64,000 bases of DNA, from IMG/VR virus record IMGVR_UViG_3300036760_000988. The stretch is one strand, 5' to 3'. A model generated the notes under the pieces. It was not told the origin of the DNA and ran no database searches. It saw only the letters and a program-made list of their open reading frames with translations. The stretch is from an uncultured virus (IMG/VR IMGVR_UViG_3300036760_000988) (lineage: Duplodnaviria > Heunggongvirae > Uroviricota > Caudoviricetes). The position numbers and the translations under genes are program-made. Position 1 is the stretch's first letter; each line of letters begins with the position of its first letter. This document shows, one piece after another, positions 2,814-62,620 of this stretch.

Positions 2814-2835
2814 CCCCTTGCGACGCGCAATTTAG

Positions 2836-2864
2836 TTGACACCTAGATCTCGCTGATGTACATC
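2836..2864 (+). promoter_or_regulatory. putative sigma70-type promoter for the parB operon
   Basis: TTGACA-17-TACATC in an intergenic gap, next to a TTGCG-N3-CGCAA site at 2818. Confidence 0.5.
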
Positions 2865-2941
2865 AACACACGGAGGACGACGACAGCTACCCGCGCCGCA
2901 GGCGCGTCGCTTTTCAACGCAACACAACCTGGAGGACGAAC

Positions 2942-3877
2942 ATGGAAGCAGAATTCGAGACCCTGGCCCTGAAGGAGCTGACCGACGGTACGGAGGTCGG
3001 CTTCGAGAACCCGCGCGAGAAGATCGACGCGAAGGAGATCGCCAACCTCGCGGCGGACATCGCGGCGAACGGCCTCTACTACCCGCTCCTGGTGTGGCAG
3101 ACCGAGAAGGACGGCAAGACCGTCAAGATCCTCATCGGCGGGCACCGGCGGAAGACCGCGATCGAGCTGCTGATCGAGGAGGGGCGGGCCCCGTGGCGGG
3201 TCGGGACACTGGAGAAGAAGGTGCCCGTGCGCTACATCGCGGGCAAGACCCTGCGTGACGCGAAGTACAACGCGCTGGCGGACAACCTCCACCGCCAGGA
3301 GCTGACCTCGTACGAGCTGGCGCAGGAGATGAGCCGGCTGAAGGTCATGGGGGACGCGGGCAAGACCATCGCCCAGACGCTCCACAAGTCGGAGACCTGG
3401 GTGTCGCGCAAGCTCGGCGCCTTCGAGAAGGCGGGCGCGGCGTTGAAGCGCGCGTGGAAGGCGCAGAAGCTCTCCGACGACAACGTGGAGGCGCTCGCCA
3501 AGCTGCCCGAGGAGGAGCAGGAGGAGGCGGCGGAGAAGCTCGCCGAGCTGCGCACGCAGGGCCGGAAGGGGCGGTCCCAGGCGCGGCAGACCGCCAAGGG
3601 GCGGAACGCGGTGCAGCGGCCCGCGCCCAAGCTCATGACCGAGATGATCCTCCTCGCGGACGAGGCCGAGGCCGATCTCCGCTACGTGCAGGGCGTGAAG
3701 GACGCGCTGCGCTTCGCCACCGGCGCGATGCCGCTCGGGAAGTTCGATCCCGAGTGGAAGACGTACGTGAAGGAGGTCCAGGCCGCGGCCGACGCGAAGG
3801 CGAAGGCCGACGCGGCGGCGGAGAAGGCGAAGGAGAAGGAGAAGTCGGAGAAGAAGTCGAAGAAGGACAAGGAGTAG
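2942..3877 (+). CDS. parB: ParB/RepB/Spo0J family protein
   Basis: ENPR, LAADIAANGLYYPLLV, IGGHRR, DNLHRQEL and an HTH (IAQTLHKSETWVSRKL); GGAGG RBS. Confidence 0.85.
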   Translation: MEAEFETLALKELTDGTEVGFENPREKIDAKEIANLAADIAANGLYYPLLVWQTEKDGKTVKILIGGHRRKTAIELLIEEGRAPWRVGTLEKKVPVRYIAGKTLRDAKYNALADNLHRQELTSYELAQEMSRLKVMGDAGKTIAQTLHKSETWVSRKLGAFEKAGAALKRAWKAQKLSDDNVEALAKLPEEEQEEAAEKLAELRTQGRKGRSQARQTAKGRNAVQRPAPKLMTEMILLADEAEADLRYVQGVKDALRFATGAMPLGKFDPEWKTYVKEVQAAADAKAKADAAAEKAKEKEKSEKKSKKDKE

Positions 3878-3881
3878 GACC

Positions 3882-4193
3882 ATGGAGAAGAAGCTCAAGA
3901 AGAAGTTCGACGCGCTCTATGTGGTCGTGGAGGAGCTGCGCGACCGCTGCGCACAGCTCGATGCGCCGAAGGAGAAGTATCTCACCAAGGTGCTCACCAA
4001 GCTCGATGCGGTGGAGGAGCTGCTCAACGGGAAGCTCGCCGATGACGCGAAGCGCGAGAAGCTCGGGAAGCTGGATCTGGACGCGACGCGCTACGGCGTG
4101 GACGATATCGCGGGGGCCTTCAGCATCCTGGGCTTCAAGGACACGCACTCGAAGCTCCTGCAGACGTGGATCGACCTCGACACCGCGGTGTAA
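3882..4193 (+). CDS. hypothetical protein
   Basis: RBS present; typical codon usage. Confidence 0.7.
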   Translation: MEKKLKKKFDALYVVVEELRDRCAQLDAPKEKYLTKVLTKLDAVEELLNGKLADDAKREKLGKLDLDATRYGVDDIAGAFSILGFKDTHSKLLQTWIDLDTAV

Positions 4194-4198
4194 GTCTG

Positions 4199-4270
4199 GG
4201 ACGGGGCGTGGCGCCCGTCGCGCTAACCCCCCTTGCGCGCTGGTGCCGCGCTCCGTTCCTTTTTCTTTTG
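4199..4270 (+). terminator. intrinsic terminator
   Basis: Long GC stem GGACGGGGCGTGGCGCC...GGTGCCGCGCTCCGTTCC followed by TTTTTCTTTT. Confidence 0.65.
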
Positions 4271-4287
4271 CACACATGGAGGACGAC

Positions 4288-7325: not shown

Positions 7326-7345
7326 TTGCGCCGCGCAACCACGTC

Positions 7346-9416: not shown

Positions 9417-10190
9417 GTGGCAACCGATACGACAACGCGTCCCTGGTGGGTGGCTGATGTGCTTGCGCTGCCCCCCACGCCCGTGCCCTCGGGCGCGGCC
9501 ACCGTTGGCGGCAACGTCCAGGCGAAGCCTGCGGACCTCGCGGCCCGTGCCGGCGTGTCCTTGGACGTGTACGCGCTCGGACGGAATGTCAGCTCGGAAA
9601 CCGGCTCCGCGACGCCCGAGCAGCAGATGGTGGTCGCGCTTGCCGCGATCAACCACGCCCGCAAGAAGGGCAAGAGCGTCTCGGCGATGCTACTCTCCGC
9701 CAAGCCGGGTTGGGCGGGGTTCTTTGGGCCCATCCACGATCCCGGCACCGGCGTCGCGGGGCACTCGATGGGCCGCTGGGCCGCGACCTCGAAGGATCCC
9801 AACCTCCGCAACCTGAAGGTGGCCGAGATCGCCCTCACGGGCGCGGCGGAGGACTTCTCGCCGGTCGATGATCAGTACGGCCCACAGTACAACCTCGCCG
9901 GGGCCATCGCGAACAAGGTGCGGGTCCAGGCCGCGAGCCACAGCTACTGGATCGGGCACCTCCCGAACGTGAACCCCCATCAGGTGATGGGCTTCGTCAC
10001 GCTCCCGAACGTCGCGGCCAGCTCGGCACAGGGGCAGGCGCTGCAAGCGGCGGCGATCCAGATGTTGCAGTCGCCCGGCGTGTATCCCAAGCCGACGGCG
10101 ATCGGTGGACGCCCGCTCGGCTTCTTGTTCGCGCTCCTCGGGTTGGGGGGCGCCTGGTGGTGGTTGCGGCGCGCAAGGCGCGGCAGATGA
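9417..10190 (+). CDS. SleB/Hydrolase_2-like cell-wall hydrolase with C-terminal membrane anchor
   Basis: YALGRNVSSETGS...VALAAINH resembles the SleB catalytic Glu motif; ends in FLFALLGLGGAWWWLRRARRGR. Confidence 0.55.
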   Translation: MATDTTTRPWWVADVLALPPTPVPSGAATVGGNVQAKPADLAARAGVSLDVYALGRNVSSETGSATPEQQMVVALAAINHARKKGKSVSAMLLSAKPGWAGFFGPIHDPGTGVAGHSMGRWAATSKDPNLRNLKVAEIALTGAAEDFSPVDDQYGPQYNLAGAIANKVRVQAASHSYWIGHLPNVNPHQVMGFVTLPNVAASSAQGQALQAAAIQMLQSPGVYPKPTAIGGRPLGFLFALLGLGGAWWWLRRARRGR

Positions 10191-12012: not shown

Positions 12013-12291
12013 CTACGGGAGTGGGGGGGCCTGCGTGTCGAGGAAGCGCAATGCGAGGTAACAGAGTCCGGCTGCCGCGAGGATCTCGTAGATCTCTGGT
12101 CCCGCCCCAGTGTTTCTGATCCAGCGGTAGCCGTCGATCGCGCTGCCCCACGCGAGCGCAGTCCAGACGCTCATGCAGACGTGGCAGGCCCAGGGCTTGC
12201 GCCCCGCAAGCGTCCACCGCGCCACCGGGGGCAAGGTCCGCACCAGCTGCACGGTGATCAGGGCGCACAGTCCCAGGACGATGCTCAGCAT
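12013..12291 (-). CDS. membrane protein (DUF1360-like)
   Basis: Hydrophobic helices with CHVCMSVW. Confidence 0.5.
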   Translation of the reverse strand: MLSIVLGLCALITVQLVRTLPPVARWTLAGRKPWACHVCMSVWTALAWGSAIDGYRWIRNTGAGPEIYEILAAAGLCYLALRFLDTQAPPLP

Positions 12292-13656: not shown

Positions 13657-13712
13657 GTACCGACACTAAAGGCCGGACTTGCGCGTCGCAAGGAAATTAT
13701 GTACAGTGCCCT

Positions 13713-13800
13713 TCGTCAGGCTCGCTCAAAGCGTCGTCCTCCAAACTACGTCCGGTCGAGCCTTGGAAGCCCCTGAGACCACCTCGGGGGCTTCCACTTT
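13713..13800 (+). ncRNA. candidate small RNA
   Basis: TTGCGC-17-TACAGT promoter (13679-13707), a structured body with UCCUCC and a terminator hairpin at 13764-13796 followed by CTTT; lies in a non-coding gap. Confidence 0.4.
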
Positions 13801-14324: not shown

Positions 14325-14855
14325 TTGATCCTCGCCGCAATTGATCCCGGCCTGCGCGCCTGCGGCCTCGCGGTGTTCAAAGACGCGGTGCTGATCGAGG
14401 CGCAGCTCGTGCCGGGCAGCGTTGACGCGCTGGACCACCATGCCTGGCGCGCGATGGGGCTGAGCATGGCTCGCGCGCTCACCTACCACGCCGCGACCCC
14501 AGGTGAAGAACGCCGGCTGGTGATCGAATTCCCTCAGATCTACGAGGCACGCGCGCACTCCAAGGGCCCCGCCGAGGATCTATTGCAAGTGGCCAGCGTG
14601 GTCGCCGCCATCACGACCAACACCACCTGGACGTGTCGGCTCTTTCGACCGGCGCAGTGGAAGGGTCAGAAACCGAAGCCTCCGATGGAGGCGCTCACCC
14701 GCACACGAATCACGCCCTTCGAGCTGTCGAAGATCCAGCTGCCGGCGAAGTCCCTCGCGCACAACGTCTGGGATGCGGTCGCCATGGGCCTGTGGTATCT
14801 AGATCGCGAAGGCTTGCGCGCCGCAACTTTTCCGCAGTTCACTCCCCCCACATAG
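14325..14855 (+). CDS. RuvC-like Holliday junction resolvase
   Basis: AIDPG, VIEFPQ, W.G.K and HNVWDAVAMG acidic catalytic set. Confidence 0.75.
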   Translation: MILAAIDPGLRACGLAVFKDAVLIEAQLVPGSVDALDHHAWRAMGLSMARALTYHAATPGEERRLVIEFPQIYEARAHSKGPAEDLLQVASVVAAITTNTTWTCRLFRPAQWKGQKPKPPMEALTRTRITPFELSKIQLPAKSLAHNVWDAVAMGLWYLDREGLRAATFPQFTPPT

Positions 14856-16260: not shown

Positions 16261-16820
16261 TGCGCCTCCAAATATTTGATCAACAAGCGTAGCCGAGCCG
16301 GACTATCCTTCAAAAAACCCAGTGCTGTATTACACGGTCGACACAACAGTCCTCGTACCCTACCCGTAGTATGATCATGATCTACGTGCGTGTGTCGATT
16401 GAAGCCTAGTTGCGCACCGCAACCGGAGCACCGACCGTCCTGGGCGTTGAACATTCGTGCCCAATCTTCGGCGTCCAATCCATACTGCCGCATGTCGTGA
16501 TTCAGTTGCGAATATCGTCCTGCAACGGTCTCCTTGCGCTTTTTGTGCCGCGCCTTCTGCGCCAACTTATTTTCGGGTCGTCGCGCGTACGCACGCTGTT
16601 TCACACGCCTACGCTCAACATTGATTGGTTTGCTGGCGTACTTCTCCTTAGCGATTTTGGCACGCGCTCTCCCACGAGGAGTCTTAGCCCACGCATTCAC
16701 CAGTTTTCGCACGCAAACCTTGCAGGTGTATGCCTTACCTAGTGGACGATTCTTGTCGTTGTGAAAAGCCAATAACGACTTTCTGGTCTTGCACTTGTGA
16801 CATCTTCTTAATCCATACAT
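16254..16820 (-). CDS. endonuclease VII-type homing endonuclease
   Basis: QDGRCSGC...HVDHDHTTGRVRGLLCRPCNTALG; lower GC. Confidence 0.9.
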   Translation of the reverse strand: MYGLRRCHKCKTRKSLLAFHNDKNRPLGKAYTCKVCVRKLVNAWAKTPRGRARAKIAKEKYASKPINVERRRVKQRAYARRPENKLAQKARHKKRKETVAGRYSQLNHDMRQYGLDAEDWARMFNAQDGRCSGCGAQLGFNRHTHVDHDHTTGRVRGLLCRPCNTALGFLKDSPARLRLLIKYLEAQC

Positions 16821-18103: not shown

Positions 18104-18236
18104 GCACCCCTCCAAAATTGCGAACCGCAACCCTCTGGCACCCGTCCGCTGAAAGAACCCGGCATCATTGCCGGAGGACTACCGCCGCTTGTCCGTAGCG
18201 ACTGCGGCCGGGTACCAGAGGGGTACGAACCTACAA

Positions 18237-21283: not shown

Positions 21284-22953
21284 CCCTTGAACGCTTTCAC
21301 GATGCGCGTCGCGTAGGGGGTGAGGACATCTAACACGTCGTGCGCCGCGGGGGAGAACGACGACATCACCAGCACCGCGGGCAGATGCGGGATCTGCTCA
21401 CGGATCAGGACCGACAGCGGGCCGCGCCACTTCCCGAAATCGATGAAGCGATAGTCGGGCAGCCCGTGGGTCTCCGCGATCTTCTCGACGATGGGACGGA
21501 GCCACTCCTCCAAGAGCACGTGCTCGGGCTCGTCCCGCTTCGTGGGCATGCAGTCCACGTAGATCACGAAGGGCTTCCGCTTCGTCGCCTTCGGGGCCGG
21601 CGTCGGGGTGTTCTCCGGGATCGGCGTCCCCGTTGCGCCCGCATCGCCCTCGGTGGCCGCCGCGGCGGTGATCTCATCACGGGCCTTCTCCGCCGCGCTA
21701 CGCTTTTTTGTCGCGGGGGGCTTCTCCGTGGCGGCCGGCGCCGGCTTCTCGCCTTCGCCGAGCTGCGCCGCCGTCACCTTCTCCTCACGCGGGGCGGCGT
21801 CCGGGGGCACCACGCCCATGGCCGCCACCACCTGCGTGATGACCTTCCCGCCCATGGTCTCGATCGCGGGAGCCGGCGGGGTTCCGGCCGCCGCGGCGGC
21901 GACCTCCGCCTTCTTCCGCGCCAACTTCTCCGACATCGTAAGTCCTGCTGATCCTGCCGTCACGTCCGCCATGGTGGGGTCCTTTCGCTCTGCCGCCAAA
22001 GAGATCTTGCCGTTGATGATGTGGAGCTGTCGCGTCGTGCTCGGCGCCGTGCTCCCAGTGAAGCCACAGAGGCTCCGGTAGTGACAGCCCCCGTAGAGCC
22101 CGCACGACGCCGGGTTGGGATCGAGATCGGCACCTGCCGCCGCCGCGCGATCCCGCGCCATGCTCTCCACGTAGCCCAGGGCTCGCGCCCACTGCGTCTC
22201 GATCTGGTTGCGCGTCGCAATCGCGCGCACCGGGTGCGCCTTGTAGGGACGCTTCGTTCGTAGATAGAGGTGCGACACCTCCAGCTCCTCGTCGTCCTGC
22301 CACGGCGGGGGATCGAGCCGCGTCTTGTCCCCCGCGGCGATGAGCCGTGCCCGGTCTGGGCCGTACTTCGCGACCAGCTCCGGGAGGAGCACCTTTCCCA
22401 GTTGGAAGGACAAGGCGATCTCGTCCACGGTCTCGGGCGCGAGGTTGGTCACGGTCCAGCACGCATCGTCCGCGGTGTGGAACGCCCACCAGCCGTAGGC
22501 CATCAACTGCAGATTTTCTAGCAGCTCCTGCGGGGTCTTACAGTAGCGGAAGTCCGAGGTCGTCTTGTGGTCGAGCACGCGGCGCCGCGGCGTCGCGCGG
22601 GGATCGAACAAGTCGACGTAGCCCACCCAGAACGGCCCGCCGGGATACGTGGGCAGCTCGAACCGCTGCTCGATCAAGAGATCGGGGTGTCGCGTTGGGA
22701 GGTTCGCGATGCCAGCCAGGAAGATCGCCTTGATCTCCGGCTCGGCCTCCGCGATCTCGCCGGTGCGTAGGAAGCCCTCCGTGGTCTTGTGGACCTTGGA
22801 GCCCTTCTCCGCCGCCGGCTTCCAGGGCTCGGGCAGCTTCAACACGTGGCGGTTGAACCAGAACCGCGGGCAGCGCACGTACGCCTCCACCTGGGAGGCG
22901 CTCGTGTGGGTGAGGAGCTGCCTCACCTGCTGCATGGCATCCACAGTGGTCAC
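21280..22953 (-). CDS. Cas4/RecB-like PD-(D/E)xK exonuclease with C-terminal extension
   Basis: SASQV...CPR, GYVDL, LDHKT, QL..Y and CGLYGGCHYRSLC Fe-S type cysteines. Confidence 0.8.
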   Translation of the reverse strand: MTTVDAMQQVRQLLTHTSASQVEAYVRCPRFWFNRHVLKLPEPWKPAAEKGSKVHKTTEGFLRTGEIAEAEPEIKAIFLAGIANLPTRHPDLLIEQRFELPTYPGGPFWVGYVDLFDPRATPRRRVLDHKTTSDFRYCKTPQELLENLQLMAYGWWAFHTADDACWTVTNLAPETVDEIALSFQLGKVLLPELVAKYGPDRARLIAAGDKTRLDPPPWQDDEELEVSHLYLRTKRPYKAHPVRAIATRNQIETQWARALGYVESMARDRAAAAGADLDPNPASCGLYGGCHYRSLCGFTGSTAPSTTRQLHIINGKISLAAERKDPTMADVTAGSAGLTMSEKLARKKAEVAAAAAGTPPAPAIETMGGKVITQVVAAMGVVPPDAAPREEKVTAAQLGEGEKPAPAATEKPPATKKRSAAEKARDEITAAAATEGDAGATGTPIPENTPTPAPKATKRKPFVIYVDCMPTKRDEPEHVLLEEWLRPIVEKIAETHGLPDYRFIDFGKWRGPLSVLIREQIPHLPAVLVMSSFSPAAHDVLDVLTPYATRIVKAFKG

Positions 22954-38040: not shown

Positions 38041-38077
38041 GTTGCGCAGCGCAACCGGCTTGCGGTAAGCTCCCTCC

Positions 38078-39114: not shown

Positions 39115-40009
39115 CGAGGAGCACCTGTGCGAGCTTGCGCAGCGCGTGGGTCGGCGTCTGCCCCTTGAACGACATGTACGAGTCCGAAGCGAGCACGCTC
39201 ACCGAGTAGGGCTCGGCGTCCAAGTCACTGGAGAAGTCGAACGAGAGCCGCCGGCACAGGCGCGTGGTGTCGCGCAGGAGCTGCCACGTCGGCGGCCAGC
39301 CCGCGTCCTTGTTCGTGTCCGTGGGCGGCACGTACTTCACGATCTCGACCTTGGGGGGCTTCGGCATGATCAGTCCAGGAAGTAGGTGAGGCCGCACGCG
39401 CACTCGACCCCCAGCCGCTCCCCGGCGGCGTAAATGCAGCGGACGAAATGGTCGGCGTGCGCCGGCTGCTCGGTGACGATCAGCTCGAACAAGTACTTGC
39501 CCCGTCGTGGCGTGTCGAGGGAGATCGAGTCGTCGTCGAGGGGGCGCCAGTCGTCCCAGTTGATGTCCACCACTGCTACCCTTCCTGCGCGAGTTCGCGC
39601 TCGATGGCGTCCTGCTCCCGCTCATCCAGTTGATTCCAGATCTGATCGGCGCGGCGTATGCGGTCGCGGTACTCCCACGTGCCGGGGGTGCACGTCGTCA
39701 TTTCGTTTGCGACGCGCAAGTACTCCTGCGCGAGCGCCGAGAGCGGCGGCCGAGGCTTGGGCACGAACAACTCGGCGACGACGCGCGATCCGATCTTCCT
39801 CTGAAGCCAGCGCCAGATCGACATCACGCACCCTGCCTTTCGTGCCAGCGGATCACGTTGCGACACCACACCGCGATCAGCGTCGCGGCGATAGCACGGC
39901 GCACCTGCGCCAGTCGGAACGCCTGGAACTGCGCGGGCGTCATCACGATCTCCGCCAACCCTGGCACGATCTCGACGCAGCGCTCGAACCACTTCTGGTC
40001 GATGTTCAT
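39074..40009 (-). other. four small hypothetical ORFs downstream of the recombinase
   Basis: Closely packed ORFs (39074-39367, 39370-39573, about 39576-39825, 39824-40009). Confidence 0.5.
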
Positions 40010-46526: not shown

Positions 46527-49500
46527 GGGGGTCTCCTTCTGGGGTCGCGCAACAAGTTGAGCGCCGTGCAGATGTGTTCGTTCAGTAGCAAGAGCTGGTC
46601 CTTGGTCATCTTGGGGACGAGGTGGAGGAGCATGGCATGCCAGCTCGGCAACAGGTTGAGGATCTGCACCCGTAGCGTCGCTTCGTCCAGCGCGGCCACC
46701 ACCCGCGGGTCCTGATCCAAGTATTCGTAGATTGAGGGCATCATCTTTTCCCGTGCAGACAAGGACCGCACTCGCACGTCGTCCGATGCCGGTGAAACCA
46801 AAAGGTCTGTCCAACGCCCAGACCCAGCTGCTCGGCGCGGAGCTGTGGTAATAGCGTGACCCCGAGCGACGCCTCGGACTCTGACGGGAAAGGTCCCAGG
46901 ACATCGCAGTCGCCATTCCAGATGTACCAGCGCGGCTCAGGAGCCGGCGTGATGGGCCAGGGCATCACCGCTCTCCTACCCCACACCCGTGCGGACAGCG
47001 CGCGGTCCGGCGCGTCGGCTTCTTCTGGGCCATCACCCAGAGGTAGTGCCCGCAGGACAGCTGCAGCTTCCAGGGCACTGCGGTCGGTTTCTTGTAGATG
47101 TGCGTGACCTTCTTGAAGACGCCCATGTTCACCTATTCCGCGCCTGTCGGCGATGTTCTTCCAGTGTGAAGCCGCAGTGCAGGCAAAGATCCGAAGCCTC
47201 GGTCTGCTGCTCGTCGTACGGGTACTGGAACTGCACGCAGGGGTAGATCCCCGGCGTGTAGATCTCCCGCACCTCCGCGAAGGGCAGCCGCTGGTTGCGT
47301 CGCGGAGGGATCTTCACGCCCATCAGCGCAGCTCCAGGCAGCGATCGAGCGCCGCCAGTACGTTGTCAATGCCCAGGTTCTCGATGAGCTGCAGCAGCAG
47401 CTCCGGCGGAACCTTCCGCTCCTTCACGATCGTCCGTACATTGTTCACGAAGTTCCACGCCAGACAGAGATCCTGTGTGCGCTCGAAGGGCAACTTACGG
47501 AGCGCGGCCACGATCGCGGTCGGCACCCGCGTCGAGCGGTCGCCGTGCTCTTTGCGATCTGTCCAGTAGAGCGTCGTCCACTCCTCGCCCGTTGGCTCGA
47601 TATAGCAGCGGCCGACCAAGGGATCGTCCGGCACGATGGGTAGCTCCACCGTCATCTCAGCCCCGCTTTCGCGCCGGCCAGCGGCGGGTGCGACGAAAGG
47701 TCTCCCGCTCGGCCGCCGTCGCGTGTGCACACTTCACGGTGTGTCTATGCATTGATCGCTCGGCGGAGATATTCCAGCCCGAGAGCGCGGTCGGCTTCAA
47801 GACCTGGCCCTGGCACGTGGGGCAGATCATGACCTCGTTTTCGAGCCCCGCCGAGCGGGTGCGTGGGGGCAGGGCGCGATCCTGGGCGTCGGGCCAACCG
47901 GGGGGTGACGCGGGTACTGTGTCGAGCTTCGTCATGTTTGCTCCTACAATCGTTACGTGGTTGCGCGTCGCAATCAGACCGCGGTGAACCGTTCACAGCC
48001 GGAAATGGCGCACGGGCCGGTGTCGCTCTCGTGCTCGATGAGGGGCATGCCGCAGTGGCAGGCCAGCGAGAGTCCGGGGTGCGGGCCGGCGGGCGGCGCA
48101 CCCACGCAGGCCCCGAAGATCGCCGCATGACCCGCCTCGTCGAGCGTGGCGCGGGCCTGCTCGATCTTCTGCAGGATGGTCGAGGACACCGGGCCGATCG
48201 GCGCGAGGCCCTCGTTGAGCAGCGCGTTCAGATCCAGTCGCGCTTGTGCCGCATTGTCGAGCGACACGAGGGCGATCGTGCGCAGGGAGTGTGCGAGGTC
48301 GAGCAGGATGAGGCTGGCGGCGTGCAGCGTCTCCTTCAAGGAGTCCGCCTTGTAGGCGTCGTTCAGGCGCTGGGTGAGCGCTTCGTTGACCTCCTGGGCC
48401 AGATCCTGTTCGTGCTTGTTCATGATCTTCGTCTCCGCTTGCGTCGTTTCCGGGGGTACTCCCGCAACTTGGCCCGCCACTTGTTCGCCTCGAAGAACGC
48501 GGCGTCGGCGCGGGCGTTCAACTCGGCCGACCACACCATGGCGCACAGCCCCGAGAGCCGGAGGTACGTGGACATGTAGCCCCCGATCTTGCCGCGCACC
48601 TGTACCATGGTGAGAGGCGGCTTCACGGCTTGCGTAGTACCTTCGCTGCCGCGCCGCACGGGACGTGCCCGCATTTCTTGCAAGCGTCGCGCGCCTGCCC
48701 GTTGTAGATCCGGCACTGGCAACAGCCCCAGCCCGGCATCACGTTCGGGTGATCCACGACGGTGCAGCCTTTGGTCTCAGCGCTCATTTGGGGGCGCGCT
48801 CCGTCGCCAACTGAATGCGTAACTCGACGAGCTGTGCCTGGCAGTCGGCCAGCCGTGCCTCCAGATCCCCCACGTGGTCGACGCCGACCTTGACCAACTC
48901 CACCGCAGCGGCCCACCCGGCTTGTGCCTCGGCGCGTTCGTTACCCAGGATGACGATCGCCTCCTTGAGTTCCACGATGCGGTCGCGGTGTTCCTGCAAC
49001 TCTTGGTCCTGGGCCTTGACGCGCGTGGCGGCGCCGTGGATCTTCTTCTGATTGCGGGTGCTCATTGTGGTCCTTTCACAGCTTCAGATCCTTCGGTAGC
49101 GCGTTGAAGAAGTCCATGCACTGCGGCGTCCAGACCGAATGCGCGAGCAGGTAGTGCTCCGCTTTCTCCGGCCACACGAAGCCCCAGCCCGTCATGTCCG
49201 CGGAGCCAAGGAGCGTGTCGCAGATCCGGCAATTGGCGTAACCCATATAGCCGATCCCCCGCGTGCCTTGCGCCAGCGCCGCCGCGATCCAGATTCGCTT
49301 TTCCTCCTCCCCGCCGAGGTATTCGTCCGGGCTGCCGCCGGGGGACTCCGACCAGTAGAGCAGGGGCTTGCCTTGCCCATGGGGACCGTTGGTGCAGAGC
49401 ACGCAGTGCTGGAGGGAGAGGGCACCCAGCACCCCACCCAGCACCCCCGCCGCGAGCTGTCCCCGTCGTCCCCAGTTGAGCGTGGTGCCGAGACGGGTGC

Positions 49501-49829
49501 CCGCCTCTGCAAACTCCTGTACATGTGCTGTGAGCCGCGTCCCGAGGGGACGAGCACAGACACGACAGCTACCGGGCGGGGCCGCGGACACGCCCATGAT
49601 CAGTACTGCATTTCCTCGGCGGCCCACGGTCCCGGCGCGTCGCCGCCCTGGGCCAGCCAGGCGTCCAGCTCCTGGAACTTCTTCGCGAGCGTCAGGCACT
49701 CGGACGCCTTGAGCGGCTTCTTCTTGTCGGCGGCTTCGGTGATGCCCTCGGCGATCTTACGCATCTCCTCCAGGGCCTTGGTCGGGTTCTCGGAGAACAG
49801 CATCGGAGCCTCCTTCTTGCGCGTCGCAA

Positions 49830-54626: not shown

Positions 54627-55334
54627 CTAGGAGTCTACCTCGGAGGGCTTGCGCGTCGCAAGCTGGCCCCAGAGCATGAACAGCTCTAGTGGCGGGACAT
54701 CTTGATGGGCCCTACGGCGATCAAACGAACTTCCTGTCAGGGTGTCAACGCGGATTGCGTTTAGACGATCGATCGAGGTCGAGAGCCGGAAGGGTAGTAT
54801 CAGTGGCCCGAACCAAAATTCCCGAATGAGCATCTGACTTTTCTCGGGGGAGGGTGCGATGTGATTGAGACTGTTGAAAGCGCGTACCGCATCGCGATCG
54901 GTGTTGAAGACAAGCTCTCCCGAGAAGCTGCTGTTGTAGTTGCTCGTATGGCTGCGCGTCACGTTGTACCGCGTTGGACGTGGGGACATCTGCCAGTAGA
55001 GCCAGCGCACAGGATCGATCGGCGTAGAGTAGCGCCCGCCATGCGCGCCCTTGCCGACCCGCCGCACCAGGAAGGTGCCGGGACGCCGGCTCGTGCCATA
55101 GGCGGCGAGCACGCCATGATCCACGAGCCAGTCGGACATGACCTGATGCTCGGCGTCACCGGCGAATAGCGCTTCGAGGACGACCTCGATCGCGAGGAGA
55201 TCGAACAACTCCGCGCGATTCTCGTCGAGGGTGCTGTAGCTCAGCTCGAAGCCCCAAGGTCCGACCTGACCGCGCATGAGCGAGTCCTGCGGGAAGACGA
55301 ACTCCGCGTCGCCGATTTTGCGTCGGATCTCCAT
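54627..55334 (-). CDS. hypothetical protein
   Basis: Open frame adjacent to neighbours; lower GC in the 3' half. Confidence 0.55.
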   Translation of the reverse strand: MEIRRKIGDAEFVFPQDSLMRGQVGPWGFELSYSTLDENRAELFDLLAIEVVLEALFAGDAEHQVMSDWLVDHGVLAAYGTSRRPGTFLVRRVGKGAHGGRYSTPIDPVRWLYWQMSPRPTRYNVTRSHTSNYNSSFSGELVFNTDRDAVRAFNSLNHIAPSPEKSQMLIREFWFGPLILPFRLSTSIDRLNAIRVDTLTGSSFDRRRAHQDVPPLELFMLWGQLATRKPSEVDS

Positions 55335-56642
55335 TCAGCGTGGACAGCAGAAGCCGCAATGCCCCTCGGCGTTGCGGCGCCGCGGGTTCTCTCGCGGAGG
55401 GAGCCCGCGCAGCCGCTGCAGCGCCGGCTTCAGATCCTCCACCGTTTCGGGATCGATCCCGAGCGTCTCGACCAACTCGATGACCTTCTTCACCTCGTCC
55501 GTCTTCAGCGCGTAATCGAAGCCGACCTTGCCGAGGTCCCAGCCGGGCAGGCGATTGGCCTTGCCCTTGATCTGCACGATCTCGTTGATGAGGCGCCCCG
55601 GCCCCACGAGCGCCTCGATGGTGAATAGCGGCTTCCCGCTCGGCCGGCGCAGGGACAAGATCTTGGTGCGCCCGGCGCGCACCTCTTGGGCGTAGCGGTA
55701 ACGCGGATCACCGACGCACATGCCCATGGCCTTCGACTCGGCGGGCAGCTCCTCGGGGGTCAAATCCAGGACGAAAAACTTGTCGGGGAACGTGTGGAGC
55801 ACGCGCGCCTCGGGGGGGAGGGCGACGACCTCCTCCGCCTCGTCCGCCAGCGCGTCGATGCCCAGGGTCTGGGCGACCGCGGCCGAGAGCTTCTCCCAGT
55901 CGGGGTTCGCGTCGGACCAATAGGTCACGTAGCCGTCGATCTCCAGCGCGTACTTCTGCTGCTCCAGATCTTCCGGCTTGAGGGAGAGGTAGGTCGCGTG
56001 GTTGATCTCCGCGAGCGCCACCGCGATCTCATCGGGGTGCATGTGCTCGGTCAGCGCGTCGATCTCGTCGGCCTCGATATAGAAGCTCTGGTTGCTGGAG
56101 GTCTTCAGGAAGGCTTCACCGTACTCGTTGGTGCCGTAGGTGAAGTCCCAGTTGTTGTTGTCCTGCATCGCCTCCAGGAGCGCGGCCTCGATCTCGGCGT
56201 CATCGGATTGCGGCCGGAACTCGTTGAAGATCTCGGCGACGTGATCTTGATCGCGGTACGAGCGCCGCGCCATGTCCACGAAGTCGTCGGCGTACTCTCC
56301 GAACTCGTTGTCCCAGTCGTCGTCGAATTGATTGCTCAGATACTGCTCGTCCGGCTCCTCCAACCACTTGTGCCGACTGACGAACGCCTCTACGAGTTGG
56401 TCGATCCGCGCCTTGCTCGCCGGGTCGTGCTCGTGGATGTACTCCTGCAGGTGTTCATCCAAGTGTGCGAACTCCGCGTCATCGAAAGCATCACGAGGGA
56501 GCTGCTTGATCTCGGCCTCGCTCATGCCCCGCACGTCGGTCACGATCGCCGACTCGCCACCGAATAGGTCGGGGTGCAGGCCCACGCGGGGATTGCGCCG
56601 CGCAAGATCACTGGGCCGATCACTATGGAAGTGCTTCTTCAT
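55335..56642 (-). CDS. acidic protein with C-terminal PcfJ-like domain
   Basis: EL..ES..MGMCVG...Y...ILSLR...P..TIE...QIKGKAN. Confidence 0.65.
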   Translation of the reverse strand: MKKHFHSDRPSDLARRNPRVGLHPDLFGGESAIVTDVRGMSEAEIKQLPRDAFDDAEFAHLDEHLQEYIHEHDPASKARIDQLVEAFVSRHKWLEEPDEQYLSNQFDDDWDNEFGEYADDFVDMARRSYRDQDHVAEIFNEFRPQSDDAEIEAALLEAMQDNNNWDFTYGTNEYGEAFLKTSSNQSFYIEADEIDALTEHMHPDEIAVALAEINHATYLSLKPEDLEQQKYALEIDGYVTYWSDANPDWEKLSAAVAQTLGIDALADEAEEVVALPPEARVLHTFPDKFFVLDLTPEELPAESKAMGMCVGDPRYRYAQEVRAGRTKILSLRRPSGKPLFTIEALVGPGRLINEIVQIKGKANRLPGWDLGKVGFDYALKTDEVKKVIELVETLGIDPETVEDLKPALQRLRGLPPRENPRRRNAEGHCGFCCPR

Positions 56643-58088: not shown

Positions 58089-58526
58089 TCACCGCCTGCG
58101 CTTGCGCGTCGCAACTCGCTGCTTGCGCTTGAGGAACCACCACAGCGCCCCTGCGCCACCCGCGAGCAGGAGCCACTTGGTCATGCTGCCACCGACGCCC
58201 GCCGTGAGCGCGCCACCACCCCCCTCGATCTGCGGCGCGACCTTCTCGAAGGTGGCCTGCGCGGCGGCGGCATGTTGCGCAACGGCCGCCTGCTGCGCGG
58301 GCGTCGCGGGGGGATGCACCGTGTTCGGGTTGAGCGCGGCGTTGATCCCTTGTGGGGTCAAGACCAGTGCCAGGATCTGCTGCGTCCGTGCCGCCCCGTA
58401 TTTCTTGATCAACTCGGGGATGATCGCATCGCGCTGTGCCGGGTTGAGCAGCGCCCGCGTGATCGTCGCGATCTGCTGCGCGGTGAGCCCGAGCGCCATT
58501 GACAGTGGCGAGCCAAAGAGCGGCAT
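58089..58526 (-). CDS. virion membrane protein
   Basis: C-terminal WLLLAGGAGALWWFLKRK...RKRRR. Confidence 0.7.
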   Translation of the reverse strand: MPLFGSPLSMALGLTAQQIATITRALLNPAQRDAIIPELIKKYGAARTQQILALVLTPQGINAALNPNTVHPPATPAQQAAVAQHAAAAQATFEKVAPQIEGGGGALTAGVGGSMTKWLLLAGGAGALWWFLKRKQRVATRKRRR

Positions 58527-59314
58527 TACCGTCGCCTCCGCGGATTCCGTTTTTTGCGGAAGAACAAGAAGTACCCGGCGCCCAGGCCGCCCAGGATCAA
58601 GAGCCAGGGCGTCTTCTTCGTTGGTACTGTCGCCTTCGCGGGACCCACGGTCGCGGTCGCGGTCTCGGTCTCCACGACCGGGCCGCCGCCTCCACCTGCG
58701 TCCGGCAGAGGGGCAACGCCCGCGTCTTCGCTCTCCGCGCCCCAGGGCTGCTCGTCGGCGGGTAGTTCACTCGATGCGCCTCCCCCGCCCGCGCCGGGGC
58801 TCCAGGCGCCGCCGCCACCCCCGCCGCTCGAACCGCCACCGCCGCTGCCCGTGCCCGTGCCCGTGCCCGTCCCCGGAGGGGGCGGAGGCGGTGAGGTCAT
58901 GCTCGTGACGATGGCACGCTTCTTCAGTCCCGGCACGGTCACGATCGTGGTACGTCGACCCCCCGCGGGGGCGTTGCCGCGCGCGGGGGTCGTACCGCGT
59001 GCAGGTGGAGGCGCGGCGGTGAGCTGCGTGTACTTGCGCTCGCCCAGGCGCAGGAGCGCGTCGAGCTTCGAGACTAGGTAGTCGCCGCGCATCTTCGTGG
59101 TCGGCGCCGACGGTTGCCCGGTCTGCTGGGCGACGATGTTCCACTGGTTGCGCGTCGCCACCGGCAAGGTGATCTGTCGGTCCTTGAGGGGCTGTGCGGG
59201 GGCGGTGACCATGGTTCGCCACGCCGCGAGAGCGTTGAGCAGCCCCCGCAGGAGCGCGGCCGGGGTCGCGGGACCACCGCCAAACAGCCCACCACCGATC
59301 GCGATGTAGCTCAT
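58526..59314 (-). CDS. low-complexity virion membrane protein
   Basis: MSY start, Pro/Gly linker, C-terminal TM segment plus RKKRNPRRRR. Confidence 0.7.
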   Translation of the reverse strand: MSYIAIGGGLFGGGPATPAALLRGLLNALAAWRTMVTAPAQPLKDRQITLPVATRNQWNIVAQQTGQPSAPTTKMRGDYLVSKLDALLRLGERKYTQLTAAPPPARGTTPARGNAPAGGRRTTIVTVPGLKKRAIVTSMTSPPPPPPGTGTGTGTGSGGGGSSGGGGGGAWSPGAGGGGASSELPADEQPWGAESEDAGVAPLPDAGGGGGPVVETETATATVGPAKATVPTKKTPWLLILGGLGAGYFLFFRKKRNPRRRR

Positions 59315-60375: not shown

Positions 60376-60399
60376 GGACCACCCTCCGCCTACGTCGAA

Positions 60400-61044
60400 C
60401 TACATGTTGACGATGCGGTAGCCGGGGAGCGCGATGACGAGCTTGCCGTCGGTGGTGGGCGTCCCCGCGGACGAGAAGTCGATGTCCTCGTACGTCGGGA
60501 AGATCTGCATCACCGTGTTCGGCGTGAACAGGGACGGCACCGGCAGCGGGATCAGGTTGTCGGGTCGCGAGAGCAGCCCCGCGGGCACCGCGAGGTTCTG
60601 CTCGGCGCGCTGCGAGCCGCCGTCGAAGAACTCGTAGGAGAGGTCGATGATGTCGTCGTCGAGCACCTGATCGGGCAGCGGCCAGTGCGCGACCGGCCGC
60701 CACATGCCGAGCCGCGTCGCGGCCGGGGCCGGCGCCGAGGGCTTCCACATGGCGAGCGGGTAGTGGGTCATGACGAACGGTCCGTCCTGCGACACGAGGT
60801 AGTTCATCGCGTCGGCCCGCGCCCCGAGCTGGGCGATCGAGAACGCCTGCACCTGCGACAGGGTGTAGAAGATGCGTCGCCCTGGGATGGCGTCGATCTC
60901 CTCGGTCACCGTCCGCGGGCGCGTCTGGAACGCCTGCTTCAGCGCGGACAGCTCGCGCTTGGTGTTCAGGATCTCGTTCTTGAACGGGGTGATGAGTTGA
61001 CGGATGAATTGCGCGAGTTCGTTCGAGACGGGCTGCATGATCAC
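60400..61044 (-). CDS. putative second (large) single-jelly-roll capsid protein with N-terminal coiled coil
   Basis: Helical N-terminus then an all-beta domain (DGGSQR..QN..VP...PLPVPSLFTPN...LVIALPGYR); AAGGAG RBS; position in the structural operon. Confidence 0.55.
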   Translation of the reverse strand: MIMQPVSNELAQFIRQLITPFKNEILNTKRELSALKQAFQTRPRTVTEEIDAIPGRRIFYTLSQVQAFSIAQLGARADAMNYLVSQDGPFVMTHYPLAMWKPSAPAPAATRLGMWRPVAHWPLPDQVLDDDIIDLSYEFFDGGSQRAEQNLAVPAGLLSRPDNLIPLPVPSLFTPNTVMQIFPTYEDIDFSSAGTPTTDGKLVIALPGYRIVNM

Positions 61045-61143
61045 CGCTCCTTAACCCAGAGGTTGGGGTGCCCGAGGGCACGTTGGAAAATTGCGCGTTG
61101 CAAGGACTGCCAGGCAGGAATTGCGTGGTGCGAAAGTTGGGAG

Positions 61144-61797
61144 CTACTTACGTGGCCGAACTCCTTCGCGTGTCAGCGAGGGGGTTTTTACAGCGTCTTC
61201 TTCAGACCACCCCCGAGACAGTCGATTTGAGATCGTACTTTCGGGAAGCTTGTACTTCTCGGCCCACTCGGCAAGACAGCGAGCTTCGCCGTTGATGGTG
61301 AGCAAGCGAGAGGATCTGCGATTTCGTGCCTGCTCCTTGTCGGTGGCCCAGCGAATGTTCCCAGGCATGTAGTCGCCGGTGTTGTCGATGCGATCGATCG
61401 ACTGTCCCCGGGGACGTGGGCCCAAGTGCTCGTTCACGTAGGCGGCGAACACCTCGAAATCGTGCAACCACGGCGCGTGGATGTGGATGTCGGGGTACCA
61501 CGTACGCTGCCCCGTCTCGATGGGGCGACAGCGATCCTTGATCGAGACCCAGGTGCGATAGAGTGGGGTCCGCGATTGACCGTGCGTGGTGGCAACACGG
61601 CGCATGTTGTCCACCGCCAAGCAGCCGCACGATTTCGCATGACCAATCATGAGATTGGTCTCGCGCACCCACTTTTCCTTCCCACAGTCGCACTTGACGT
61701 GTACCCACCAAAATTTCTGTTTTTCGTTTTCGCCCTGCCGCTGCTCTCGTCCGAGAGCTGTCAGCCGACCGAATCGATCTCCGATTACGACACTCAT
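61144..61797 (-). CDS. HNH homing endonuclease
   Basis: CDCG, KSCGC and SIDRIDNTGDYMPGNIRWAT..EQARN. Confidence 0.88.
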   Translation of the reverse strand: MSVVIGDRFGRLTALGREQRQGENEKQKFWWVHVKCDCGKEKWVRETNLMIGHAKSCGCLAVDNMRRVATTHGQSRTPLYRTWVSIKDRCRPIETGQRTWYPDIHIHAPWLHDFEVFAAYVNEHLGPRPRGQSIDRIDNTGDYMPGNIRWATDKEQARNRRSSRLLTINGEARCLAEWAEKYKLPESTISNRLSRGWSEEDAVKTPSLTREGVRPRK

Positions 61798-61828
61798 GGG
61801 AGCCTCCTGCGTAGGAGGCTCCCATGAG
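61793..61828 (-). promoter_or_regulatory. RBS/start-codon sequestering hairpin
   Basis: Perfect 16-bp stem CTCATGGGAGCCTCCT-N4-AGGAGGCTCCCATGAG containing the AGGAGG and ATG of the HNH gene. Confidence 0.85.
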
Positions 61829-61925
61829 CCTATTCGATTGTCAACTACTACGACGGGATAACTTCCAACAGGGGCGGTCCATCACAAACATGATTACCTT
61901 TCCCTGTCGGTCATTATCAGGTTTG

Positions 61926-62501
61926 TTACTGGACGTCTCTCGTCTGGAGACCGTCGATCACAAACATGATAACTTTCTCGTCGTCAGTGGCCCCCGTGTT
62001 GAGGAGGGTGAGCGCGTTCACGGAGCCGACCGTGAAGAACTGCGCCTCGACGGCGAAGTTCTGGCGGACGGGCACCATGATCGGGCGGGCCAGCTTCAGG
62101 ATCGACTCCTGGGTGGGCTCACCCAGGTTGAAGATCGACGTGGTGGCGTCGAAGCCCCACACGCCGCCGCCCGACGGGTAGTACCAGCACGGCGCCTGGA
62201 ACGCCGGCTTGTCGCCCAGGGACAGCGTGAAGTACAGCTGCGACGTGACCCGCAGGTAGTTGTTCCGGCGGTTGGTGCCGTTGAAGTACAGCCAGCACCG
62301 CAGCGCCAGGATGATGTACGTCTGGTCGCTCGCGAGCTGACCCGCCACCTGCAGGTTGGTCAGCGCGAGATTCCCGACGTTGGCGTTGCCGAACAGTCGC
62401 TGGGACGACTGGATGGTGGGCGTCGGATCGCCCGTGGTGCGGATCAGCGTATCCCAGAACGGCTGGTGCCGTCTTTCCTTCACTCCGTGCAGACGCGGCA
62501 T
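61926..62501 (-). CDS. putative major capsid protein (single jelly roll)
   Basis: 191 aa, all-beta pattern (QPFWDT, TNLQVAGQL, YIILALR, PIMVPVRQNFAVE, MFVIDG); GGAG RBS with AT-rich leader; flanked by membrane proteins. Confidence 0.65.
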   Translation of the reverse strand: MPRLHGVKERRHQPFWDTLIRTTGDPTPTIQSSQRLFGNANVGNLALTNLQVAGQLASDQTYIILALRCWLYFNGTNRRNNYLRVTSQLYFTLSLGDKPAFQAPCWYYPSGGGVWGFDATTSIFNLGEPTQESILKLARPIMVPVRQNFAVEAQFFTVGSVNALTLLNTGATDDEKVIMFVIDGLQTRDVQ

Positions 62502-62620
62502 GTTGTTTTCTCCACTGTTTTTAGTTTCGTCCCGAGCCATCTCGGGGCAGGAGGGGTGGCTTCCCCACCGGAGATCACAGCATTGAGGGTTTGCAGAAAC
62601 AGAGTTTGCGAACCGCAAAT

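Follow-up and report, generated by a model that had tools for sequence, protein, structure and literature searches.

Dispersed 13-bp palindromes in a novel tailed phage and its distant relatives: probable binding sites of an orphan ParB/Noc/KorB-type protein

Introduction

The DNA of the uncultured tailed virus recorded as IMGVR_UViG_3300036760_000988 raises the question of why one short palindrome, TTGCG-N3-CGCAA, recurs so often along it and which protein reads it. The whole 64-kb stretch that was analysed, referred to below as the window, is part of an 81,303-base contig that encodes the primase, and the ~17 kb past its right end lie outside the analysis. The palindrome occurs in 23 perfect copies in the window. 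It was concluded that an orphan protein of the ParB/Noc/KorB family encoded by the phage itself (2942-3877, hereafter ParB) probably binds these 13-bp palindromes as a dimer and in double-stranded DNA, and that together the sites would constitute a KorB/parS-like loading array for a ParB clamp. A first-pass annotation of the sequence had proposed a dimeric binder and sites of the chromosome-organising type (parS/ParB, NBS/Noc). That reading gains support from the conservation of the motif in three distant relatives, from the way in which it tracks ParB and from its shift with the recognition helix of this protein. Gene positions used throughout are our own codon-bias calls, which comprise 106 genes and cover 88% of the window, 11.9% being intergenic.

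Abundance of the motif and constraint on its arms

The 23 start coordinates given in the first-pass annotation were all correct, and its rough expectation of ~0.1 copies per 64 kb lies close to the values obtained from simulated backgrounds. The expected number was 0.16 in 100 dinucleotide-preserving shuffles (maximum 1), and 0.09 and 0.125 under order-3 and order-5 Markov models, respectively (200 simulations each, maximum 2), so that the enrichment stands against a higher-order background. It is restricted to the N3 spacing. The same arms separated by N0-N2 or N4-N7, including the N2 and N4 spacers proposed for comparison, gave no copy in the window, and N8 gave a single one. The half-sites alone are unremarkable, TTGCG being present 108 times and CGCAA 73 times on the plus strand of the window. 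Nine of the perfect sites are identical, seven of them reading TTGCGCGTCGCAA and two its reverse complement, as had been noted before.

One-mismatch copies number 10 in the window against ~3.1 expected. All six that had been listed exist, and the list was completed with those at 8001, 13414, 23741 and 35425. There are 26 two-mismatch copies, none of which carries a compensatory double change. Taken together, the counts, the spacer lengths and the mismatch data indicate that all ten arm positions and the spacing are strongly constrained.

Relatives carrying the motif

Relatives were found by alignment-based scans, the G007-type contigs by way of a conserved 191-aa protein. The same arms are present in three of them. 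G002 (83,535 bp, with 123-bp terminal repeats and rated complete) has 31 perfect copies, compared with a Markov expectation of 0.18 and one copy of the reversed control pattern, and 28 one-mismatch copies (4.0 expected); it shares 31 of the 106 window proteins, in reversed synteny. G005 (82,417 bp, with terminal repeats) contains 18 perfect copies (reversed control 0) and 22 with one mismatch (2.25 expected); it shares 20 of the 106 proteins and is devoid of the polymerase, helicase, primase and XRE genes of the window. Contig C1 of G007 (80.6 kb, part of a metagenome bin) has 14 perfect and 17 one-mismatch copies, and 13 of the window proteins. The proteins shared with these three genomes are 25-86% identical. 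Nucleotide alignments of the window to G002 or G005 cover only ~3-4 kb, at ~70% identity, and therefore the shared 13-mers are not leftovers of recent common sequence.

Whether the motif is equally frequent in a host chromosome, which would have made it a host motif, could be judged for a candidate host from the bin of G007. The bin without C1 (~8.7 Mb) contains 15 sites, and the reversed control pattern occurs 14 times in the whole bin; the motif density of C1 is ~100-fold that of the rest. Therefore the motif is not frequent in this bin, which is a candidate host only, since binning is no proof of host and bin labels are unreliable host assignments.

Scans of viral contigs with single proteins gave no locus for the primase, one distant locus for the helicase and none for ParB. 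With a topoisomerase-like protein 28 otherwise unrelated loci were retrieved, none carrying the motif. A metagenome scan with a primase alignment gave one distant locus (L030), again without the motif, and a genome scan with a ParB alignment retrieved no relative. An exact 42-base string of the window did not occur in the viral contigs. In 30 unrelated loci (532.5 kb) TTGCG-N3-CGCAA was not found, and the shorter core TTGC-N5-GCAA occurred nine times, never three or more times in one locus. Two unrelated viral contigs of 20.9 kb each carry dispersed palindromes of their own, TGCAA-N4-TTGCA (L016) and GTAAAA-N3-TTTTAC (L023), six copies in each case.

The ParB/Noc/KorB-type protein

Sequence alignments of the proposed binder with Noc (7ol9, E 1.6e-6) and Spo0J span the N-terminal domain and the helix-turn-helix (HTH). 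Its GGHRRKTA element is of the GxxRxxA type and is aligned with the corresponding motif of Noc and Spo0J; G67, R69 and R70 are invariant in eight ParB homologues, and GxxRR is kept in 150 of the 155 family members examined. Residues 110-194 align to the DNA-binding domain of Noc (6y93). The Pfam ParB_N match has an E value of 6.5e-4, below the curated cut-off, and the PHROG ParB-like match one of 2.4e-19. The Pfam KorB domain was matched at E 0.005, 0.0049 and 2.6e-4 in the proteins of the window, G002 and G005, in all cases below threshold.

A model predicted from eight homologues (pLDDT 71.9) gave as best Foldseek matches Noc, ParB and KorB chains (E values down to 3.6e-10), KorB 8qa9_B among them; the operator-binding domain of KorB (1r71) was matched with a TMt of 0.66 and the Noc-NBS domain (6y93) with 0.72. 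The C-terminal third of the model (pLDDT ~50-68), where a dimerisation domain would be expected, contains a long helix and a Lys-rich tail, with no match to a Pfam C-terminal domain. Judged by these comparisons, the product of 2942-3877 is a genuine member of the ParB/Noc/KorB family. Its subfamily is small, with 49 clusters at E <= 1e-30 among 1.84 billion representatives. One homologue, P0007, is 56% identical and is encoded on a 78.7-kb contig.

The protein is an orphan. No ParA-type family was recognised among the 119 open reading frames (ORFs) of the window or among 105 of the 119 ORFs of the complete G002. The families PF13614 and PF01656 were absent from G002, G005 and G006, a more distant fragment described below, and were both found in all 14 control genomes. 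The ParA-binding motif [LFI]G[KR]G[LFI], as defined in PMC12704722, did not occur in the first 40 residues of any of the 155 family members. Neither the adjacent ParA nor the ParA-binding motif of a canonical ParABS system was found in the phage system, the window contig being judged from its 64 kb.

Co-variation of the motif with the recognition helix

ParB is the only window protein that was found, at E <= 1e-5, in every genome carrying the motif or a variant of it. The helix KSETWVSRKL of the window is unchanged in G002 (47% identity over ParB) and reads KSETWISRKL in G005 (43%) and KSAAWVSRQL in G007 (38%); all four go with TTGCG-N3-CGCAA. In G008 (27% identity, helix KSASWVSRML) there is no copy of this motif. 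It has instead nine copies of the core TTGC-N5-GCAA (1.08 expected), in the form TTGCCA-S-TGGCAA, so that with respect to the window the arms have C:G in place of G:C at positions 5 and 9. Of the 106 window proteins, ParB alone has a counterpart at E <= 1e-5 in G006, a fragment of 58 kb and 52% G+C (30% identity, helix KSETWVSR). A de novo search ranked AAGTTTGC-N5-GCAAACTT first among the palindromes of G006, with nine copies, eight of which are perfect over 21 bp, and the core TTGC-N5-GCAA stands in this palindrome at the same spacing as in the window motif. G003 and G004 (29% identity) have no match to this core; G003 has another HTH, and the match of G004 stops before the HTH. Low counts of the core (0-2 matches) likewise go with the more divergent or barely detectable ParB-like genes of G009 and G010, treated below. 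In the genomes compared the motif is found to co-occur and to co-vary with ParB and its recognition helix.

Of the candidate binders named in the first-pass annotation, ParB is the one favoured by this phyletic profile. The XRE protein has no homologue in G005 (best E 0.79) or G007, which both carry the motif. For the supposed ribbon-helix-helix (RHH) gene a Pfam search gave nothing at E <= 0.05, and G002 lacks a homologue of it.

Spacer sequence and the symmetry of the site

The spacer had been regarded as free, which is incorrect: no spacer of the window or of G002 starts with T or ends with A, and G005 shows one exception among 36 strand-readings (18 sites, both strands). Sites with one arm mismatch often combine A6 with T8 (15 of 28 in G002 and 14 of 22 in G005, ~3.5% being expected by chance), a combination present in 7 of 31 perfect-arm sites of G002 and in none of the 18 of G005. 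The more frequent A6/T8 in arm-mismatch sites fits a threshold of additive binding energy. The full palindromic consensus deduced from these sites is TTGCGA-S-TCGCAA, that is, 6-bp arms around a single base, with the conserved core TTGC-N5-GCAA. Such a sequence cannot fold as a hairpin, and recognition of double-stranded DNA by a symmetric dimer is favoured over an RNA hairpin, the A6/T8 preference being the strongest argument for it.

Placement relative to genes

Seven of the 23 perfect sites begin 0-4 nt after a stop codon, as had been stated and as was found again with our gene calls, compared with a mean of 0.20 and a maximum of 3 in 2000 trials of random placement. The site centre lies within 35 nt of a stop-codon edge in 12 cases (random mean 2.66) and is intergenic in 10 (random mean 2.76), and an annotated start follows 1-45 nt downstream of 8 sites (random mean 1.65). 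Short gaps between a stop and the Shine-Dalgarno sequence of the next gene are often filled by a site (18118, 29401, 47961, 49817). The two sites reported in homing endonuclease genes are indeed so placed (16410, Endonuclease_7; 27598, HNH). The bias to gene 3' ends claimed before is strong in the window. It is much weaker in G002: of its 31 sites, 2 follow a stop at a distance of 0-4 nt, 8 lie near a stop edge (3.1 expected) and 19 are intragenic. Intragenic sites use two frames, which encode the different peptides LRxAx and xAxRK/N; the third, Cys-containing frame is rare. The use of two frames with different peptides points to selection on the DNA and not on the peptide. If the protein is loaded along the whole genome, the preference for gene boundaries would chiefly mark the places at which a fixed 13-mer is least costly.

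The placement after stops, together with the orientation of the favoured spacer (ACG over CGT by ~8 to 1 when oriented to the gene calls, mostly with transcription, by our own reading), would suit an element acting in RNA, namely a hairpin with a 5-bp stem and a 3-nt loop that serves as terminator, as processing or stability element or as the site of a translational regulator. This explanation is considered very improbable. Only 2 of the 23 sites passed a loose stem-plus-T-run pattern, and compensatory changes, absent from the window variants, make up 5 of 46 two-mismatch sites in G002, two of the five being the same terminal-repeat copy; T-rich tails and compensation, as in terminators or REP-like hairpins, are thus largely wanting. 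The commonest single change, C4>T or its mirror G10>A, shows no G:U bias (in G002, five C-A, three U-G and one ambiguous, by our gene calls). The A6/T8 preference would leave an impossible 1-nt loop, most of the G002 sites are intragenic, and the window has no match to an Rfam family.

Spacing along the genome

The copies had been described as fairly evenly spaced with a largest gap of about 5 kb, which agrees with the gaps between perfect sites measured here (largest 5135 nt, smallest 1135 nt). The coefficient of variation (CV) of the gaps in the window is 0.47, compared with 0.96 for random placement (P about 0.0002). When sites with up to one mismatch are counted in the four genomes (window, G002, G005 and G007) the CV is 0.57-0.73 versus 0.97 at random (P 0.0002-0.036), and the mean gaps are 1.4-2.7 kb. 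With such an even spread and such gaps the protein could occupy the whole genome.

Even spacing and enrichment are unexpected for the target of a restriction or modification enzyme, and a reading of the palindrome as an enzyme's recognition sequence, be it that of a methyltransferase or base modifier, of a nicking or homing endonuclease, or an N4-like hairpin promoter for a phage RNA polymerase, has a very low probability. It draws on the abundance of methyltransferase, HNH and nucleotide-modification genes in the window. Palindromes interrupted by N3 are typical of type II enzymes, and the N4 virion RNA polymerase uses hairpin promoters in which a stem of 5-7 bp carries a 3-nt loop. No methyltransferase, on the other hand, is common to all motif-bearing genomes, the homologue of 30076 being missing in G007 and that of 52255 in G002 and G005. 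No RNA polymerase family was recognised among the 119 window ORFs or 105 of the 119 ORFs of G002, and the A6/T8 preference speaks against hairpin extrusion.

The site at parB and the promoters

In all five genomes considered (window, G002, G005, G007 and G008) a site is found at parB itself. The perfect site of the window stands ahead of parB, next to a putative promoter (Table 1). In G005 a one-mismatch site (61697) lies 1 nt upstream of TTGACA-N16-TACATG, likewise ahead of parB. In G002 the parB ATG is preceded at 17 nt by a perfect site (76010); G007 has a one-mismatch site (3542) over the first parB codons, and G008 a site with two mismatches (23195) ~60 nt upstream of parB. Such a position would allow autoregulation.

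In promoter and terminator scans the sites were not generally associated with sigma-70-like promoters or with terminators. Among 51 loose promoter-like matches (TTGACA-N15-17-TAnnnN) in the four TTGCG genomes, four have a site no more than 8 nt upstream of the -35 box, ~0.2 being expected by a rough estimate. Since at least four sites adjoin -35 boxes, a KorB-like operator role may be considered for them. The -10 box of the putative parB promoter is overlapped by a perfect 10-bp palindrome, GATGTACATC (2855-2864; ~0.02 expected per window), and this sequence or a one-mismatch copy lies over the -10 box at three of the four such promoters, in the window and at 56309 and 61729 of G005. A second, KorA-like regulator may use this palindrome as its operator; none was recognised in general Pfam scans, no search aimed at KorA having been made.

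A side observation in this region is a GC-rich hairpin followed by a T-rich run (2892-2906; CGCGCC-GCA-GGCGCG-TCGCTTTTC), between the parB promoter and the parB ribosome-binding site. A second one is found at 13768-13797 in the XRE/cro-like divergent region (GAAGCCCC...GGGGCTTC-CACTTT). These hairpins could be terminators, attenuators or parts of small transcripts.

Table 1. Sites, proposed binder and putative promoter in the window (window coordinates; the sites are strand-less)
Feature	Positions	Strand	Context
Putative parB promoter	2836..2864	+	TTGACA (2836-2841), 17-nt spacer, TACATC (2859-2864)
Orphan ParB/Noc/KorB-type gene, proposed binder	2942..3877	+	311 aa; GGHRRKTA, HTH recognition helix KSETWVSRKL, Lys-rich tail
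Perfect site TTGCGACGCGCAA	2818..2830		4 nt after stop of gene 2379-2813; 5 nt upstream of TTGACA -35 box of putative parB promoter
Perfect site	7326..7338		0 nt after stop (7325); ATG at 7346 lies 7 nt downstream
Perfect site	10164..10176		within last 27 nt of gene 9459-10190; 10 nt upstream of ATG 10187
Perfect site	12197..12209		5' part of minus-strand ORF 12013-12291; in-frame ATG 22 nt downstream, so perhaps intergenic
Perfect site	13679..13691		divergent region; 22 nt upstream of ATG 13656 of a 77-aa minus-strand gene; one-mismatch site at matching place in G002
Perfect site	14814..14826		3' end of ORF 14325-14855 (RuvC-like as read from its sequence, no family match); G002 homologue has site at same place (61553)
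Perfect site	16410..16422		deep inside Endonuclease_7 homing-endonuclease gene 16254-16820
Perfect site	18118..18130		14 nt upstream of DNA polymerase ATG 18103; GGAGG between
Perfect site	22208..22220		deep inside PD-(D/E)XK nuclease gene 21280-22944
Perfect site	24574..24586		deep inside primase gene 23034-25760
Perfect site	27598..27610		deep inside HNH endonuclease gene 27491-28072
Perfect site	29401..29413		14 nt upstream of ATG 29428; GAGGAG between
Perfect site	30927..30939		40 nt into ORF 30887-31687; G002 homologue also has site in its 5' part (44544)
Perfect site	34076..34088		fills 16-nt gap of convergent stops: 0 nt after 34075, ends 3 nt before 34092
Perfect site	38042..38054		1 nt after stop (38040); 23 nt upstream of ATG 38078
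Perfect site	39707..39719		inside small minus-strand ORF 39576-39764
Perfect site	42826..42838		47 nt into ORF 42526-42885, or 21 nt upstream of in-frame ATG
Perfect site	47961..47973		0 nt after stop of minus-strand gene 47974-48423; next ATG 25 nt downstream
Perfect site	49817..49829		0 nt after stop of dCTP deaminase gene 49830-50411; next ATG 13 nt downstream, GAAGGAGG between
Perfect site	54649..54661		within last 22 nt of ORF 54627-55334; 23 nt upstream of ATG 54625
Perfect site	56593..56605		7 nt upstream of start of PcfJ-like gene (55335-56585); G002 homologue has site on its start (66521)
Perfect site	58102..58114		within last 13 nt of gene 58089-58526
Perfect site	62606..62618		2 nt after stop of minus-strand gene 62621-62845
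One-mismatch site TTGCGGCTTGCAA	4588..4600		
One-mismatch match TTGCGGCTCGAAA	8001..8013		may be chance
One-mismatch match TTGCGTCCCTCAA	13414..13426		may be chance
One-mismatch match TCGCGCCACGCAA	23741..23753		may be chance
One-mismatch site GTGCGCGTCGCAA	25618..25630		5' part of primase ORF as called (23034-25760), 130 nt from start codon 25760
One-mismatch site TTGCGACGCACAA	28040..28052		change at tolerant position, G10>A
One-mismatch site TTGTGCCTCGCAA	35425..35437		divergent region 35360-35468
One-mismatch site TTGCGCGCCACAA	53681..53693		
One-mismatch site TTGCGCGTCGCCA	59148..59160		
One-mismatch site TTGCGCGTTGCAA	61091..61103		47 nt upstream of gene 60400-61044; perfect site upstream of homologue in G002 (16364)

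Weight of the evidence for ParB

Several points weigh against the assignment of the sites to ParB, for which the evidence is correlational. The protein is singled out mainly by G006 and G008, and seven other proteins are also common to the four TTGCG genomes; the 4-bp core shared by G006 could be a coincidence (roughly a few percent). A Cys-rich protein of 121 aa and of no known family (6225-6590) has homologues in exactly the window, G002, G005 and G007. Two genomes keep ParB-like genes with no cognate motif found: G009 (ParB 31% identical over 176 aa, helix RSKSTVSRML) has one match to TTGC-N5-GCAA and one perfect TTGCG site, its 72.5% G+C swamping the palindrome statistic, and G010, with only a weak ParB-like match, has two matches to the core and no perfect TTGCG site. 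With respect to the site itself, the window favours the spacers ACG and CGT (9 of 23) and has no A6/T8 site, so that the fully palindromic consensus is not universal. The orientation bias of ACG gives a hint of a strand-specific aspect that is not explained by a symmetric dimer, and the tight coupling to stops in the window is not required by binding of ParB; it is weak in G002.

Some of these points suit a different dimeric binder, either another regulator of the phage (a stoperator-repressor-like protein, the XRE protein or a small protein such as that of 6225-6590) or a global regulator of the host exploited by the phage, an explanation that we regard as unlikely. A palindrome with invariant arms suits many HTH and RHH dimers, the divergent XRE/cro-like region contains a perfect site, and the Cys-rich protein matches the distribution of the TTGCG motif. 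Phage genomes can moreover carry sites of host regulators, for instance of CtrA (PMC9437464). Against it stand the absences of XRE and RHH homologues given above and that of the 6225-6590 protein from G006 and G008, which carry the core-sharing variants; its homologue is missing in G009 and G010 as well. A host regulator would also be without frequent sites in the G007 bin, where the count outside the phage is at control level, and the motif variant follows the phage ParB helix and not the bin label. In G002 and G005 the homologue of 6225-6590 is encoded closely downstream of parB.

Proposed mode of action

Returning to ParB as the probable binder, we infer by analogy that it physically binds the sites, uses cytidine triphosphate (CTP) and slides. 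A ParB dimer would nucleate at each site, as in ParB-parS and KorB-OB, close into a CTP-bound clamp, as expected from its family, and slide onto flanking DNA. Some ParB-fold proteins bind ATP or GTP rather than CTP (PMC12704722). With a site every 1.4-2.7 kb over the whole ~80-kb genome, the protein would be loaded on essentially all of the phage DNA. The outcome might be a KorB-like long-range silencing, the maintenance of a plasmid prophage, or compaction and protection of the phage DNA. Maintenance as an episomal prophage is a candidate because an Xer-like recombinase is present and ParA is absent.

A more tentative proposal, possible and yet doubtful, is that this ~80-kb phage family coats its whole genome with its own orphan clamp from 30-60 evenly spaced sites, one-mismatch copies included, which would be a ParA-less chromatin-like layer acting genome-wide and not a local centromere or operator. 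The layer might serve global silencing in the prophage or in early infection, or shield and compact the DNA against host nucleases and SMC-type defences. As part of the same tentative proposal, the helix residues ET or AA would go with TTGCG arms and AS with TTGCC arms, suggesting a co-evolution of protein and site and a natural series of specificity switches.

Comparison with known systems

KorB is a CTP-dependent sliding clamp (PMC11790492; for the ParB/KorB clamp mechanism see also PMC8494293 and PMC8367383), and the plasmid RK2 (~60 kb) contains twelve KorB OB sites, a few bp to more than 1 kb from the controlled promoters (PMC13768133). The phage system resembles KorB-OB in the ParB-fold protein with an HTH, the sub-threshold KorB-domain matches and the presence of 8qa9_B among the best folds. 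The site is likewise a palindrome of odd length, the RK2 OB oligonucleotide containing TTTAGCGGCTAAA (PMC11790492). The sites are many and dispersed on a mobile genome of 60-80 kb, some of those of the phage lying directly upstream of -35 boxes, including that of its own gene, and the layout of the phage site and GATGTACATC recalls the KorB arrangement, with OB upstream and the operator of a partner over the -10 box. The phage system differs in the half-site sequence, in the number of sites, which is 2-5 times higher (14-31 perfect, 31-59 when one-mismatch copies are included), in their even and often intragenic distribution, in that no ParA/IncC was found, and in being carried by a phage instead of a conjugative plasmid.

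The domain architecture, the best sequence and fold matches and the reading of a palindrome by an HTH dimer are shared with ParB-parS and Noc-NBS. The Noc sites are dispersed along the chromosome, at a density far lower than that of the phage sites, and parS and NBS are palindromes of 16 and 14 bp with sequences other than the phage motif. The length of parS is likewise given as 16 bp in PMC8494293. In contrast to the phage array, in which neither a ParA nor, among 155 proteins, a ParA-binding motif was found, parS sites are clustered near the origin and go with ParA. Known ParB-type CTP switches use a few origin-proximal parS sites, twelve plasmid operators (KorB) or single regulatory sites (VirB, BisD).

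Among phages, Cluster O mycobacteriophages carry 34 copies of the 17-bp repeat TGTTCGG-N3-CCGAACA (PMC4351075) and Microbacterium phages of Cluster EG 18-bp dispersed inverted repeats (PMC7302621). Both papers give their function as unknown and predict a dimeric binder unrelated to promoters. Common to these repeats and the phage motif are invariant inverted arms around a variable centre of 2-3 bp, in 8-34 copies through the phage genome; in Corndog (Cluster O) about one third of the copies fall inside genes, and many occupy short gaps ahead of starts. They differ in the sequence and length of the arms, and for the Cluster O and EG repeats no binder is known or has been proposed from co-variation. 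The Corndog protein gp90 was considered as a link to the Cluster O repeats and rejected, having ParB_N only, no HTH or KorB match and no detectable similarity to the window ParB.

The stoperators of Cluster A are also of 13 bp, present in dozens of copies over a temperate phage genome and often in short intergenic gaps, and have been likened to the Cluster O repeats in PMC4351075. According to this paper they are asymmetric, follow the direction of transcription and are the target of the immunity repressor, in which they differ from the phage motif. The arms of the phage motif are perfectly symmetric, and the XRE candidate for such a repressor is missing from two of the motif-bearing genomes.

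Many orphan ParB-like proteins of phages and prophages are included in a recent survey, the accessible text of which names no DNA targets (PMC12704722). Literature searches, with subscription-only papers outside their scope, retrieved no paper containing the motif strings and no phage ParB with genome-wide sites, and the motif with its phage ParB array is for this reason regarded as undescribed.

Gene content and further features of the phage

The window belongs to a novel tailed phage, and its DNA was matched in a sediment-metagenome run. No close relative was found in a reference phage collection (megablast of 20 kb, no match); tblastn of the primase against it gave only weak matches, to the primases of 27 Mycobacterium phages, and that of ParB none at E <= 1e-3. 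The replication genes comprise a family A DNA polymerase, a helicase, a DUF5906 primase (908 aa) and a PD-(D/E)XK nuclease. A tyrosine (Xer-like) recombinase, methyltransferases, two pectate-lyase-like tailspike candidates and four HNH-type endonucleases are also encoded. In addition to the negative Rfam search, no tRNA was found in the window.

The family A polymerase gene (15361-18103) is split by the Endonuclease_7 gene at 16254-16820, its homologue in G002 being a single ORF of 686 aa. Three more HNH genes of low G+C and of the phrog_374 type (within 20666-21283, 26742-28072 and 61144-61797) interrupt or follow genes of replication or nucleotide metabolism, one of them coming after a gene with a TSCPD domain. 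Genes suggestive of modified bases (28715-29281, 35468-35824 and 49830-53037) encode an HD-type dNMP phosphatase, a PTPS/QueD-like protein, a dCTP deaminase, a glycosyltransferase and a Methyltransf_24 protein.

The 191-aa protein (61926-62501) is unusually strongly conserved, being 82-86% identical between phages whose other shared proteins are mostly 25-55% identical (one 68%). Its relatives, with 61-78% identity, are found on contigs of phage size, in bins that carry the labels of five different taxa, and DNA ~85% identical to 61926-62501 is present on other contigs of the sequencing runs. The contig joints step back by 90 and 111 bases at 63875-63985, inside the last ORF of the window, and this points either to a ~90-110-bp tandem repeat or to an ambiguous assembly. 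Comparison of three sequencing runs gave the source contigs and short identical or gene-level pieces, and nothing on site conservation or transcript ends. The G002 record also encodes a 531-aa protein with a Cas12f1-like TNB domain (TnpB-like; 71657-73252), a protein with a Tad2-like anti-Thoeris domain (42940-43215) and a pentapeptide-repeat protein (78184-79173).

Significance

ParB-type CTP switches are an active field of research, and the present data link an orphan ParB subfamily to a concrete, testable DNA target that is evenly arrayed over whole phage genomes. This target is kept while most genes diverge to 25-55% identity, and it shifts with the recognition helix. The protein sequences, the presumed cognate 13-bp sites (TTGCGACGCGCAA, TTGCGAGTCGCAA and TTGCCAGTGGCAA) and the natural specificity variants constitute ready-made reagents. 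By analogy, the findings suggest ParB-type arrays as a candidate explanation for the dispersed inverted repeats of the actinobacteriophage clusters O and EG.

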